From Nanobdellota archaeon (GTDB taxonomy: Archaea > Nanobdellota > Nanobdellia > Woesearchaeales > JAHWHD01): a stretch of 52,754 nt of DNA. Position numbers and translations under genes: made by a program. The notes below the pieces were generated by a model. It had not been told where the DNA came from. It searched no databases and worked only from the letters and a program-made list of their open reading frames with translations. Below, one piece after another: positions 16,971 through 44,909 of the stretch (position 1 is the stretch's first letter; every line of letters begins with the position of its first letter). The stretch is taken from the NCBI GenBank assembly GCA_034722435.1, contig JAYENX010000003.1, positions 1 to 52,754 of the forward strand. Reading direction: 5' to 3'.

Positions 16971-17027
16971 TGACTTGCTGAATTCACTGTATATTGCAAT
17001 GTGGGCAGTAGCTTGCCTGAAGCAAAA

Positions 17028-17130
17028 GAACCCTTTCGTTTGTTGTTACATTTTTATTAATTTAAATGTAGCATCAAGGATTGTCTGACGAATAGCATTT
17101 TGGCTCACTGGCCAATATTGGCAAGGGTTT
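17028..17130 (+). ncRNA. Structured intergenic element, copy 1 of 3 (unknown family)
   Basis: Closing stem gaaccctt/aagggttt; internal hairpin tgttacattt/aaatgtagca; core aatagcattttggctcactggccaatattggc shared with 44805..44836. Confidence 0.6.
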
Positions 17131-17164
17131 TTTAAATTGAGAAAACAATGGAGGCTAAGTTAAA

Positions 17165-17773
17165 ATGGGATTATATAAACATATTAGAAATTTGTGGAAG
17201 AAACCTTCTGCTAACATGCCAGAGGTAATGCGTTCTAGATTAATTACATGGCGTAAAGAGCCTGTATCGGTAAGAGTTGAAAGACCTACAAGGCTTGATA
17301 AAGCTCGTTCATTAGGGTACAAGGCTAAACCTGGATATATTATAGTGAGACAAAGAGTTCTTAGAGGCGGACATATGAGGCCTAGTGGTAGAGCTGGTAG
17401 ACGTCCTAAAAATAATAGGAGAAAGTTAAGTCTTGATAAAGGTTATAAACAAATTGCAGAGGAAAGAGTTAGTAGAAAATATCCTAACTGTGAAGTTCTT
17501 AACACTTATTTTGTTGTTAAAGATGGTATGTATTATTGGTTTGAGATTATTTTAGTAGATAGAAGTCATCCTGTTATCGTTAAAGATCCAAAGATTAACT
17601 GGATTACAAAGAAGAAGGGTAGAGCTTTCAGAGGTTTAACAGCTGCTGGAAGAAAAAGTAGAGGTCTTCTTCATAAGGGTAAAGGTGCTGAACATCTAAG
17701 ACCTTCGAAAACTGCATATCATAAGCGGAAAACTTCAAAGCAAAGAAAGAGTCAATATTATAAGATTGATTAA
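17165..17773 (+). CDS. rpl15e: 50S ribosomal protein L15e
   Basis: [56 protein letters not shown]. Confidence 0.97.
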
Positions 17774-33970: not shown

Positions 33971-34723
33971 CTATCCTCCGTTTAATTTTCCCATGGCACT
34001 TTCTAAAATGCCAATAGGTAAATACTTTGCAACTTTGAAAATTATAGTTTCAGGGTATGCTTTTATGTTTCTTTCTCTTACTTGTTTAGCAAGTAAAAGA
34101 GTTCCTTCTTCTTTTATTTTTTCGTTAACCATCATAGTGAAAAGTATGCCTTTCATTTCATAATCTTTTTTAATTTGTGTGATTAGATTTGCAAAAACTG
34201 TATCTTGATAAGTGCCTGTTTTTTCTGCAAGTGAACCCGAGAAATCTATTAAAGTTTTTTTGGATTTTATAATTTCAATAATTTCTTCAGTTGTAAAGTT
34301 TGCAATATAAGTGCCAAGGTCAACTTCAAGATGTTCAAAATCAAACATTTCTTCTTTTACAAAGAATATTTTGTAATCTTTTCCCAGGATTGATTGAAGA
34401 TCTTGATCTTTATAATAATCGTTAAAGGAATCAATTTCTGTTTTATTAAGTATGTATGGAGCTTCGCCTTTAGGGTTAGCAAATTTTGCTTTGAAGCCTG
34501 TTTCTATTTTTAAATCTTGAAGAAGGAATATGCTGTCTGATGTTATAATGTTGGCTTGAAGGTGTACACTATCTGAATAAAGATAGAGGCCAAAGCCTAC
34601 AACAACAATAATTATAATTACGCTAGTGATAAGTAATGCTTTTACGAATTTTCTTAGCATCCAGAGACCTAGGCCAATTATTGCGATTACAATAATAACT
34701 CCTACTATCCAATTTAAAACCAT
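33971..34723 (-). CDS. Hypothetical membrane-anchored protein
   Basis: Two N-terminal TMs, 250 aa. Confidence 0.6.
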   Translation of the reverse strand: MVLNWIVGVIIVIAIIGLGLWMLRKFVKALLITSVIIIIVVVGFGLYLYSDSVHLQANIITSDSIFLLQDLKIETGFKAKFANPKGEAPYILNKTEIDSFNDYYKDQDLQSILGKDYKIFFVKEEMFDFEHLEVDLGTYIANFTTEEIIEIIKSKKTLIDFSGSLAEKTGTYQDTVFANLITQIKKDYEMKGILFTMMVNEKIKEEGTLLLAKQVRERNIKAYPETIIFKVAKYLPIGILESAMGKLNGG

Positions 34724-34758
34724 GGTGTAATTTATGGGTTTAAGGTATTTAAAGGTTT

Positions 34759-34917
34759 AGTTTTTATAGTGTTAATATGAAACCCTCTCGCTCACAGCAT
34801 TCGTTTTATTCATTTAATTAATTACGAATGCGTCTTTCTGTCTTACGAATAAATAACGTGTTCGCTGGCCGAGTTAGGCAAGGGTTTCATATTAGCAGTT
34901 TTTATAGTGTTAATATG
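34759..34917. repeat. Exact 21-bp direct repeat (34759..34779 and 34897..34917) bracketing structured element copy 3
   Basis: agtttttatagtgttaatatg read twice. Confidence 0.9.
34771..34896 (+). ncRNA. Structured intergenic element, copy 3 of 3 (diverged)
   Basis: 16-bp closing stem gttaatatgaaaccct/agggtttcatattagc; hairpin gcattcgt/acgaatgc; 3' core aataac..tcgctggccga.gttaggcaagggttt. Confidence 0.5.
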
Positions 34918-34973
34918 TGTATTATTTTTGATTTGCATTACTTTTATATACTTATTTTTCTTTATTTCATTTT

Positions 34974-36968
34974 ATGAATCTAAAAATCCTTCCTTTGATT
35001 GTATTTACTTTATTCTTAGCTTCTTTAGTTGCAGCCCAAGGTACGTGGTATTATGATGCTAAAGAATTAATTATTAGTACAGGAATACAATCAAGTTTGA
35101 CTATTGATAGAGAATCTGGAGCAAATGTTGATTATATTCTGGCAAATGTAACTTTTGTGCCTAAAGATAGGATGGACCAAGATGTTTTAAGTAGAGATTT
35201 AAATCCTGAGGCTTATGAAGAGGGAGGGAGCTATGTTTTTAGATGGGACGATCCTTCAGAAAATGAACTATATTTTAGTGTGGCGACTAAAATACGTATA
35301 AAAAATAGTATTAAAAAAGTTTCAGATAAAGTTATTTTCCCTGTAAATCATGTTCCTGATGACATTAAACAATTTCTTGAAGCAACTGATAATATTGATA
35401 TTACTCCTGAAATAATTCAGCAATCTTCTTCGCTCGCAGCTGGTAAAGATGATCTTTATGATGTTGTGTTTGAATTAGCTAAATGGACTAAACAAAATAT
35501 TGAATATGATCTGAGTACGATTACTGCAGATGTAAGTCAACCATCAAGTTGGGTTTTTAGAACTAGAATCGGTGTTTGTGATGAATTAACAAATTTGTTT
35601 ATTTCTATGTGTAGATCTTTAGGTATTCCTGCAAGGTTTATATCAGGGATTGCATATACTGAATCTCCAGAGTTTCCTCAAAATTGGGGTGCGCATGGAT
35701 GGGCTGAGGTTTATTTCCCTAATTTTGGTTGGATTCCTTTTGATCCTACATATGGTGAGTTTGGGTATGTAGACCCTACGCATCTTGTTTTACAAGAGTC
35801 TGTAGATAGTCAGAAGGCTGCCACTTATTATGAATGGCGAGGTAATGATTTTGAAATTAAAACTAAACAGCTTAAGATTGAGACAGAACTTGAATCTAGT
35901 TCAGGGATAGTGCCTGCGTTTATTTCACTGACTGCGAAATCTTTGTATGATGAAGTAGGTTTTGGGTCGTACAATTTAATAGAAGCAACTGTCAATAATC
36001 CTAATGAATTTTATATTGCAACAGAGTTAGGTATAAGTAAGTCGTCTGACCTTGAGATTGTTGGAGATGTTTATCAACAAATATTGTTGAAACCTTTTGA
36101 ATCGAAAGCTGTGATTTGGATTGTTAGGTTAAACGATGATTTTGATGAAGGATATATTTATACATTTCCTTTTGAAGTCTATTCTACAAGAAATTCAACA
36201 GCGTTGACAAGTTTTACTTCAACAGAACGAGATAAAGTTTATGGTTATAGTGATGTATTGACTTATTCTGAACAAAAGTTGCAAGAAGGTGAAAAATCTT
36301 ATTCTGCTTCGGTTGATTTATCTTGCGCTTTTGAAAAAAGTAATTATTTTTTAAATGAAAAAGCAAGAGTGGAGTGTGCGGTTCTTAATACAGGTAATAT
36401 TTTACTTTCAGATCTTGAAGTTTGTATAGAAAATAAATGCGAAATTGTTGAGTTAGGTATAACTCAGTCTAAAACAATTTTGAGTAATGTTGTGTTGAAA
36501 GAAGTAGGGAAACAGAGTTTTACAGCTACGCTTGAAAGTGATGAGGTTTCGAAGGTTTCGAATTTTGAAACTGTTGTTTTTGATGAACCTTCAATAAGAA
36601 TAATTGAGCTTAGTTTTCCTGAAAAAGTGAATTATGATGCTGAATTTATTGTGAGTTTCAAGCTTAAGAAGGATTCTTTATCTGTTCCTAAAACTATAGG
36701 TGTGATTTTAGAGAAGAATGGTCAGGAAAATTTGTGGGCATTTGATAGTCTAGAAAATGATAAGAGGTTTGAAATATCTTTTTTAGGTAAAGATCTTGTT
36801 GAGAATGATAATTCTTTTGATTTATCGATTGCTTATGAGGATGATTTTGGGAGGCGTTTTATTGATGATGTTTCTTTTGTAGTGGTCTTAGAAGATTTAA
36901 CAACTGTTCAGAAATTTAAGGCGTTTTTTAATAAAATTAGAATGTGGGTTGCAAAAATTTTTAATTAA
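34974..36968 (+). CDS. Secreted transglutaminase-domain protein
   Basis: Signal peptide; GVCDELTNLFISMCRSLGIPARF, HGWAEVY, WIPFDPT. Confidence 0.88.
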   Translation: MNLKILPLIVFTLFLASLVAAQGTWYYDAKELIISTGIQSSLTIDRESGANVDYILANVTFVPKDRMDQDVLSRDLNPEAYEEGGSYVFRWDDPSENELYFSVATKIRIKNSIKKVSDKVIFPVNHVPDDIKQFLEATDNIDITPEIIQQSSSLAAGKDDLYDVVFELAKWTKQNIEYDLSTITADVSQPSSWVFRTRIGVCDELTNLFISMCRSLGIPARFISGIAYTESPEFPQNWGAHGWAEVYFPNFGWIPFDPTYGEFGYVDPTHLVLQESVDSQKAATYYEWRGNDFEIKTKQLKIETELESSSGIVPAFISLTAKSLYDEVGFGSYNLIEATVNNPNEFYIATELGISKSSDLEIVGDVYQQILLKPFESKAVIWIVRLNDDFDEGYIYTFPFEVYSTRNSTALTSFTSTERDKVYGYSDVLTYSEQKLQEGEKSYSASVDLSCAFEKSNYFLNEKARVECAVLNTGNILLSDLEVCIENKCEIVELGITQSKTILSNVVLKEVGKQSFTATLESDEVSKVSNFETVVFDEPSIRIIELSFPEKVNYDAEFIVSFKLKKDSLSVPKTIGVILEKNGQENLWAFDSLENDKRFEISFLGKDLVENDNSFDLSIAYEDDFGRRFIDDVSFVVVLEDLTTVQKFKAFFNKIRMWVAKIFN

Positions 36969-44665: not shown

Positions 44666-44675
44666 ACTTATTTTT

Positions 44676-44848
44676 ATAGAAAGTATCTCGTTCGCCTGCT
44701 CGAATTGTAAGTGATTTGATAACAGATAATCTCACATCAATACTATTTTACTCGAACTGTGTTCGAGCAATGCTCAGTAATGAATTATGTTTCCGACCAT
44801 TACAAATAGCATCTTGGCTCACTGGCTAATGCTGGCGATACTTTCTAT
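44676..44848 (+). ncRNA. Structured intergenic element, copy 2 of 3
   Basis: Perfect 12-bp closing stem atagaaagtatc/gatactttctat; hairpin ctcgaac/gttcgag; core 28/32 identical to copy 1. Confidence 0.6.
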
Positions 44849-44909
44849 TAAGCTTCTAAAACCATAAACCTTATAAAATTCAATTTTTATTCTTCATCCA
44901 GGTGGTTAA

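Follow-up and report, generated by a model that had tools for sequence, protein, structure and literature searches.

The stretch of DNA analysed here (52,754 nucleotides, hereafter the window) is contig C3 of a Woesearchaeota archaeon genome (G000; 1.3 Mb in 60 contigs). Between the leftward gene 33971–34723 and the rightward gene 34974–36968 it holds a short structured element bracketed by an exact direct repeat, with the promoters of both genes recognizable in the same intergenic region: a TATA box (TTTAAATA, 34746–34753, minus strand) whose start lies 30 nt from the ATG of the leftward gene, and a second (TTTATATA, 34943–34950, plus strand) 31 nt before the ATG of the rightward one. The repeat is the 21-mer AGTTTTTATAGTGTTAATATG, which occurs at 34759–34779 and 34897–34917 and at no other place in the window, where ~0.01 matches would be expected by chance (with up to three mismatches allowed); it is absent from the rest of the 1.3-Mb genome, in which the next best match (18/21) is at chance level. 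To this extent the first-pass annotation of the locus, which had reported the exact repeat at both positions, its absence around two further copies in the window (correct on inspection of their flanks) and a 9-nt pairing between the two sides, was accurate. The pairing joins catattagc (34888–34896) to gttaatatg (34771–34779) with one G–T pair (G–U as RNA), and the fold that includes this arm reaches −41.5 kcal/mol (z −6.3), as against −26.1 kcal/mol (z −2.5) for the fold without it. The motif GTTAATATG has only 33 occurrences in 2.6 Mb of strand sequence, so that a second GTTAATATG beside the element is not a matter of chance.

The composition of the repeat is best understood by comparison with sister copies. 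Three copies in G000 (the window copy, G000:C39:9745–9870 and G000:C15:1515–1640) are 97–98% identical and lie at unrelated sites. The outer arms of the C39 and C15 copies read gGCTAATATG / gGCCAATATA ... CATATTAGC, and because they share this arm in unrelated flanks, the gttaatatg within the left 21-mer is the element's own left tip; treating it as target DNA, as had been done at first, parses the junction wrongly. An exact 9-bp direct repeat brackets each sister (GGAATAATT for C39, GAATAAGTA for C15). The resemblance of GGAATAATT to GAATAAGTA hints at a sequence preference within the duplicated 9 bp.

Only one parse of the window copy provides an abutting exact 9-bp duplication, namely GTTTTTATA at 34760–34768 (native DNA, as judged from the empty site in a related genome and the 9-bp rule of the family, both described below) and again at 34898–34906 (assigned from the sequence repeat and the same rule). 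These bracket a MITE copy of 129 nt (34769–34897, plus strand), which scores 117 bits with the covariance model R1, built from ten element copies after a motif search, and comprises inverted-repeat arms and the conserved core, made up of TCGYTCRC, a hairpin that varies, GTCTTACGA and a second hairpin, TCRCTGGCC..GGC; it contains no transposase gene, being overlapped only by chance ORFs of ≤49 aa. Outside the right duplication the opening 11 nt of the element occur once more (GTGTTAATATG, 34907–34917, plus strand). The 21 bp are made up of the 9-bp duplication, one base to its left (A, 34759/34897) and 11 bases to its right. The tips of the window copy are themselves aberrant, reading GTGTTAATATG... 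/ ...CATATTAGCA where the family has GGCTAATATG... / ...CATATTAGCC, that is, GTGT.. / ..GCA in place of GGC.. / ..GCC (in comparison with 40 elements from other genomes), and the extra identical bases of the repeat coincide with these deviant tip bases. Because the extra bases fall where the tips differ from the near-invariant GGC/GCC, we infer that remodelling of the junctions took place, either at the time of insertion or later. By hand count, the termini of the three sister copies are ~10 times more variable than their interiors.

The arms reveal the identity of the element. All three copies share a terminal inverted repeat of 16–18 nt (GGCTAATATGAAACCCTC) with an IS5-family insertion sequence (IS), and the window element is therefore a MITE. 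Within G000, positions 1–365 of contig C33 carry the same arm (345–365) and, inward of it, the opening 80 aa of a transposase cut short by the contig end; this N-terminal fragment is all of the transposase gene that the assembly contains. The full IS is found in genome G015, where it is 1018 bp long, ends in a perfect inverted repeat of 20 bp (GGCTAATATGAAACCCTCAT), contains an ORF of 305 aa and is flanked by a 9-bp duplication (AAATAGAAG); its transposase is 83% identical to the C33 fragment over those 80 aa, and the ORF matches Pfam DDE_Tnp_1 (PF01609, 9e-14), DUF772 (PF05598) and the IS5-family model NF033579 of NCBIfam (145 bits, cut-off 140). Arm identity to the G015 IS and to the C33 repeat extends over 16–18 nt, with the window copy deviating in the last 1–3 nt of each tip. 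It follows that the end which the first-pass annotation saw as pairing with its target pairs instead with the element's other end: the paired 9 nt belong to the terminal inverted repeat of the C39 and C15 copies and of the autonomous IS.

A scan with the 17-nt arm, using one genome per species, returned more than 118 places, mainly in MAGs of Woesearchaeota and Nanoarchaeota, many of them where a contig ends. Forty elements from other genomes possess both arms, 36 of them MITEs (122–298 bp) and four IS (1018–1022 bp), and all but a few have GGC...GCC tips. The duplication could be tested in 39: it is an exact, abutting 9-bp repeat in 27, most of the others agree at 7–8 of 9 positions, and none is longer. 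The same conserved core as in the window copy is present in 15 of the 36 MITEs. Duplication length thus agrees with that of the parent IS (9 bp in the IS itself, C39, C15, the 27/39 and the GTTTTTATA inside the 21-mer), leaving the notion of an unusually long target duplication unsupported; the 16 family copies of G000 and the empty sites in a related genome add the copy number and insertion polymorphism of a MITE. In length (1018–1022 bp), GGC...GCC tips and 9-bp duplications the IS resembles the IS903 group, whose members according to ISfinder measure ~950–1150 bp, have GGC tips and duplicate 9 bp of target; the assignment is made at family level only.

The arm of 17 nt is found, too, in MAGs bearing the labels Methylotenera, Poribacteria, Verrucomicrobiae, Pirellulales and Methanosarcinales (L149, L155, L176, L206 and L210, besides the Methanosarcinales loci); such matches could be due to chance, to mis-binned DPANN contigs or to horizontal transfer. 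The mobile-element load of G000 is under-assembled, with several other transposase genes on short contigs or at contig ends (contigs C32, C54, C19, C43, C49 and C33 carry DUF772 / DDE_Tnp_1 transposases, with open frames of up to 541–570 aa).

The shared ends point to an IS5-family DDE transposase as the mobilising enzyme, and the RNA-guided or retro-type mobility that had been proposed in preference to a DDE transposon finds no support. A search of the kind suggested in the first-pass annotation, for reverse transcriptase, IS110-like or HUH enzymes, gave no reverse transcriptase (PF00078) match in G000, G001, G004 or G041, an IS110-type (PF01548) score below cut-off, and a single Y1/HUH (PF01797) match in a 78-aa fragment; the further suggestion, to score duplication length and end-to-target pairing over all copies, yields 9-bp duplications in the subfamily with this exact repeat and a pairing internal to the element. 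An IS200/IS605 (HUH) or IS110 element was rejected for want of an intact cognate enzyme and because inverted repeats and 9-bp duplications, both foreign to such elements, are present; a retro-type element (SINE-like, retron or group II intron) for want of PF00078 and on account of full-length copies with both arms, where 3'-anchored copies of varying 5' truncation would be expected; and an attC- or dif-like site on account of scattered copies with unrelated 9-bp duplications. With the queries used, searches of G001, G004, G041 and G074 for a PF01609 transposase came back empty, although these genomes hold from 3 to 22 or more family copies; this counts against mobilisation by such an enzyme, as does the fragmentary gene in G000, yet the IS is often unassembled, so that its apparent lack of an IS4/IS5-type transposase gene there does not demonstrate absence.

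That the window copy is a recent insertion is apparent from orthologous sites. Polarity is provided by two unpublished genomes, G001 (same genus) and G002, on both of which the empty-site evidence rests. In the orthologous intergenic region of G001 there is no element and one copy of ...atttaaaagtttagtttttaca..., the single agtttttaca following a conserved atttaaaRgttt, and the C39 site is likewise empty in that genome. Empty orthologous sites, of the general kind that the first-pass annotation had recommended looking for, therefore exist at two positions and, together with the 97–98% identity of copies at unrelated positions, substantiate its claim of recent insertion by a mobile family; nor is the window copy isolated in having flanking repeats, a situation that would have told against mobility, given that many copies have them. 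The G000 intergenic region has 30 extra bases relative to G001, with the G002 ortholog too diverged to polarise the difference. No relative closer than G001 emerged for a neighbouring 250-aa gene: an exact-protein look-up had none on record, and a metagenome scan with the protein for a close empty allele returned only relatives at 24–42% identity.

The wider family, as delineated by R1, is present in 5/151 genomes of the order (16 hits in G000, 11 in G001, 22 in G004, at least 22 in G074 and 3 in G041). Within the window it includes two further copies on the plus strand: one in the rpl15e leader (17019–17139, R1 100 bits) and one of a long subfamily upstream of cdc6 (44671–44853, R1 106 bits), the latter with a TATA-like motif at the family spacing on its right side. 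The rpl15e leaders of G001, G002, G003 and G041 have the same conserved box and ribosome-binding site with no element, so the rpl15e-leader copy is an insertion and not an ancestral RNA; the G074 leader contains a different family member at the same place. The leader itself (window 16990–17165; L096, L111–L115) carries a box conserved across the order, ATGTGGGYAGTAGCTTRCCTGAA, ~35 nt after the TATA box and before the ribosome-binding site AATGGAGGCT, for which a short upstream ORF and a site of protein binding are both candidates. Family elements have inserted just past ATGTGGGYAGTAGCTTRCCTGAA independently in two lineages.

Between subfamilies the arms differ yet stay complementary, and an inner helix (GYucRC / GYucRC) and a small hairpin covary. 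Stem pairs show no strand asymmetry (23 G–U vs 19 A–C), and the lack of a G–U excess over A–C argues for symmetry at the level of DNA and not for a one-strand RNA. The IS shares the outer 17–18 nt only, with the MITE core absent from it; since the shared part is confined to the outer arm, the core is not a remnant of the IS. Binding by the transposase leaves the conserved core and the covarying inner helix unexplained. Some members in G074 have longer flanking repeats of 12, 16 and 26–28 bp. At one such locus (L139, G074:C1:44550–44730), a 28-bp direct repeat (26/28 identical) surrounds a family member, and its left repeat codes for the end of the upstream membrane-protein gene (eight codons and the stop). 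The strict 9-bp rule is shown for the exact-repeat subfamily only, the long repeats and missing transposase of G074 limiting its generalization.

The family inserts six bases upstream of promoters. Among the 78 flanks of the 40 two-arm elements, 20 have a TATA-like TTTA[AT]A[AT] whose start is exactly 15 nt away from the element end (background 0.13% per position; p ~4e-40 for position 15), a distance equal to the 9-bp duplication plus a 6-nt, A-rich, BRE-like spacer. An outward ORF follows 20/25 TATA-type flanks vs 17/50 other flanks, starting 29–121 nt past the TATA start and mostly at 29–38 nt. Either element end may face the promoter (hand count), and we see no orientation bias with respect to neighbouring genes or promoters. 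The C39 and C15 copies obey the same 15-nt rule, and the wider R1 family peaks at the same position. In the window, the spacer taaacc (34754–34759) separates the TTTAAATA box from the duplication, giving the 9 + 6 nt spacing in a block conserved in G001, and the 30 nt between the start of this box and the ATG of gene 33971–34723 is the modal distance in the survey. On the other side, the tttatatact of the rightward promoter is conserved in G001, its box untouched by the insertion; from the TATA spacing rule it follows that the insertion spares both divergent promoters.

How the promoter would be recognized can be stated only tentatively. One reading, possible if rather doubtful in our estimation, is that the IS5-family transposon and its MITEs target BRE–TATA sequences through DNA bent by TBP/TFB, or that the TATA box is mistaken for the transposon's own repeat (the element's own arm holds a TATA-like TTTCATATTA). 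Insertion would then occur at the upstream edge of the BRE as a Ty3-like ‘safe-haven’ strategy, a proposal we likewise put forward with more reserve than confidence, and the core may serve in addition as, for example, an RNA or a protein-binding site. By analogy, we hypothesize that the transposon may be tethered to TBP/TFB. A separate case is L157:5031–6399, in which two different MITEs with the same arm lie 1.2 kb apart, each after the same 15–17 nt (ATATCTTCACCGGCACG) and with identical or nearly identical duplications; the pair may have arisen by local segmental duplication or by a repeated hit on one target.

Taken together, the locus is probably explained by a MITE moved in trans with a 9-bp stagger, placed with respect to a promoter and remodelled at its junctions. 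The transposase of the IS5-family IS, which has IS903-group features, would bind the shared terminal inverted repeats of 16–18 nt and cut the target with a 9-bp stagger, leaving a 9-bp duplication that on the promoter side ends 6 bp upstream of the TATA box, such that the promoter would stay intact. The closing stem would be the two inverted repeats paired with one another, and remodelling of the junctions during or after insertion would have extended the 9-bp duplication to the 21-bp repeat.

Several origins can be envisaged for the extra 12 bases. They may derive from a truncated second copy in tandem, arising either from repeated insertion at this hot spot or from slippage between the duplications; position-exact targeting makes this attractive, in that either event would put a tip right after the duplication, as is seen, and we regard it as quite possible if short of probable. 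No relic beyond 11 nt to the right of the window copy is detectable by alignment, and a second example of such an extra tip is lacking (no other junction of right tip, about 9 bp and left tip exists among 80 loci or in G000). The right flank (34918–34973) was also considered as a decayed second element and rejected, 1372/2000 shuffles aligning as well or better, as was a relic of ‘right tip + duplication’ (alignment p = 0.6). Short-patch gene conversion or template switching between the junctions, across the hairpin, is a somewhat unlikely alternative for which a second locus provides a precedent. In the G002 outgroup this locus is empty, with two convergent genes overlapping by 24 nt in single-copy sequence. 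The copy in G000 (C9) keeps the ancestral bases on its right and shares ~12 bp between its two sides, whereas in the orthologous G001 copy (C53b) both sides are identical over an exact 21-bp repeat with the same derived bases, the change being synonymous for the downstream gene. Comparison of C9 and C53b therefore reveals that flanking repeats in this genus can lengthen after insertion. At this locus (L016:1480–1640, equivalent to G000:C9:15240–15400; also L042, L129), the element sits in the gene overlap, which is now duplicated, and TGA/TCA bases of its arm serve as the stop codons of both convergent genes in G000 and G001. The range of repeat lengths in the family (9, 10, 12, 16, 21 and 28) led us to reject a mechanism that measures off a constant 21 nt.

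The remaining explanations dispense with remodelling or with transposition by this route. The 21 bp could be a genuine duplication of native DNA, in which the tip-like GTGTTAATATG pre-existed at the target and an element lacking its left tip was joined either through microhomology or through its right end pairing with the target, a DNA version of what the first-pass annotation had proposed. Native replacement would predict that both tips be non-canonical precisely inside the repeat, as they are; duplicated last codons of 26–28 bp exist in the wider family (G074), and the high variability of the sister termini is in keeping with it. We nonetheless consider it improbable, in that it needs an 11-mer matching the tip at ~8/10 positions beside the 9-bp site (~1e-5 per position by chance), the testable elements have an exact 9 bp in 27/39 cases and nothing longer, and the G001 empty site has no such motif, although that site is too diverged to decide; the possibility that the family generally favours targets with tip-like sequence on their far side was rejected, no consensus being present in 22 reconstructed sites. 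That the element is instead a functional structured RNA gene or leader, with the repeat incidental, might be argued from the core and three helices that covary across five genomes, from the frequent location of copies in leaders or just past genes and from the retention of the core in MITEs of many genomes. This reading is very improbable when set against the absence of a G–U excess, the patchy distribution (5/151 genomes), the lack of the rpl15e-leader copy in the same-genus genome and the duplications and empty sites that mark insertion; Rfam 15 gave nothing at gathering score for the window and 15 other copies (best E 0.3–6, to unrelated miRNA models), and any RNA role of the core would be secondary. 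A disguised tRNA, H/ACA or C/D RNA, hammerhead, SRP-Alu or 5S RNA was discarded by eye, the defining motifs being absent. An assembly artefact, that is, a graph loop traversed once, has in its favour that 21 is the smallest MEGAHIT/SPAdes k-mer, that the repeat is exactly 21 bp, that a second exact 21-bp case occurs in G001 and that contig names of the k141 type (typical of MEGAHIT) are present in many related MAGs. The nature of de Bruijn graphs speaks against this, in that the path needs reads for every 22-mer across three junctions (flank–tip–core, right tip–duplication–tip and tip–right flank); moreover, the G001 repeat falls within the conserved ends of two coding sequences, with a diverged counterpart in G000, and the other repeats of the family measure 9, 10, 12, 16 and 28 bp, making an artefact highly improbable. 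Integration of a minicircle by a tyrosine recombinase of Xer or integron type at a shared 21-bp core would account for a repeat that overlaps the element end in the manner of attL/attR cores, yet the sister flanks are unrelated 9-mers, the copies are scattered instead of arrayed and the same ends are found on a cognate DDE transposon; we assign this a negligible probability and return to the trans-mobilised MITE as our preferred reading.

MITEAba12 is reportedly short, ORF-less and intergenic, sharing its repeats with ISAba12, by which it is said to be moved in trans with 9-bp duplications. IS5-family MITEs of this sort (for example MITEAba12, with its parent ISAba12, in Acinetobacter) are the closest analogue described (PMC6382973). 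The window family is like MITEAba12 in its lack of ORFs, IS5-type repeats, movement in trans, 9-bp duplications and intergenic location, but differs in its archaeal host (Woesearchaeota), its fixed distance to a TATA box and an interior that did not arise from the IS by deletion but is a covarying core kept across arm subfamilies. We regard it as a new archaeal member of the IS5-family MITE kind, in which promoter targeting and the structured core are unusual. IS903 has GGC tips and a length of ~1 kb in ISfinder. This element (IS5 family, IS903 group; 9-bp duplication, PMC2577343 Table 1) is the closest model for the enzyme, both systems making duplications of 9 bp, and the A-rich bases beside the window-family duplication resemble its TRAAW flank (PMC2577343). 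The target of IS903 is, however, a symmetric motif, whereas that of the window family is a one-sided BRE/TATA signal at a fixed 6-bp spacing, and the two transposases are only distantly related, limiting the assignment to family level.

Other small repeats invite comparison. Correia/NEMIS, RUP and ERIC elements are intergenic sequences of 100–180 nt whose inverted repeats form long stems and which are often co-transcribed with their neighbours. The window family is similar in its small intergenic size and in inverted repeats that fold to a long stem, but its transposase family and duplications are different (Correia elements duplicate TA), and to our knowledge none of these lies at a set distance from a promoter element. 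Among the promoter-targeted integrating elements of eukaryotes, Ty3, which is an LTR retrotransposon and is tethered by TFIIIB, inserts just upstream of transcription initiation complexes; the two share a fixed position upstream of the initiation site that spares genes in compact genomes, with the difference that the window family is a DDE DNA transposon. In the literature searched we encountered no account of promoter-spaced insertion or of a conserved MITE core.

The covarying interior, kept across arm subfamilies, is not predicted by models in which MITEs are deletion derivatives of an IS. If true, the ‘safe-haven’ insertion suggested here is so far undescribed for an archaeal DNA transposon. 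The single-base precision of the promoter spacing makes it possible to test whether the archaeal transcription machinery selects the target or is itself mimicked. In uncultured archaea the family's insertions mark, at no cost, where real promoters lie, and promoter-spaced insertion accounts for the survival of mobile DNA in streamlined DPANN genomes that have little spare sequence.
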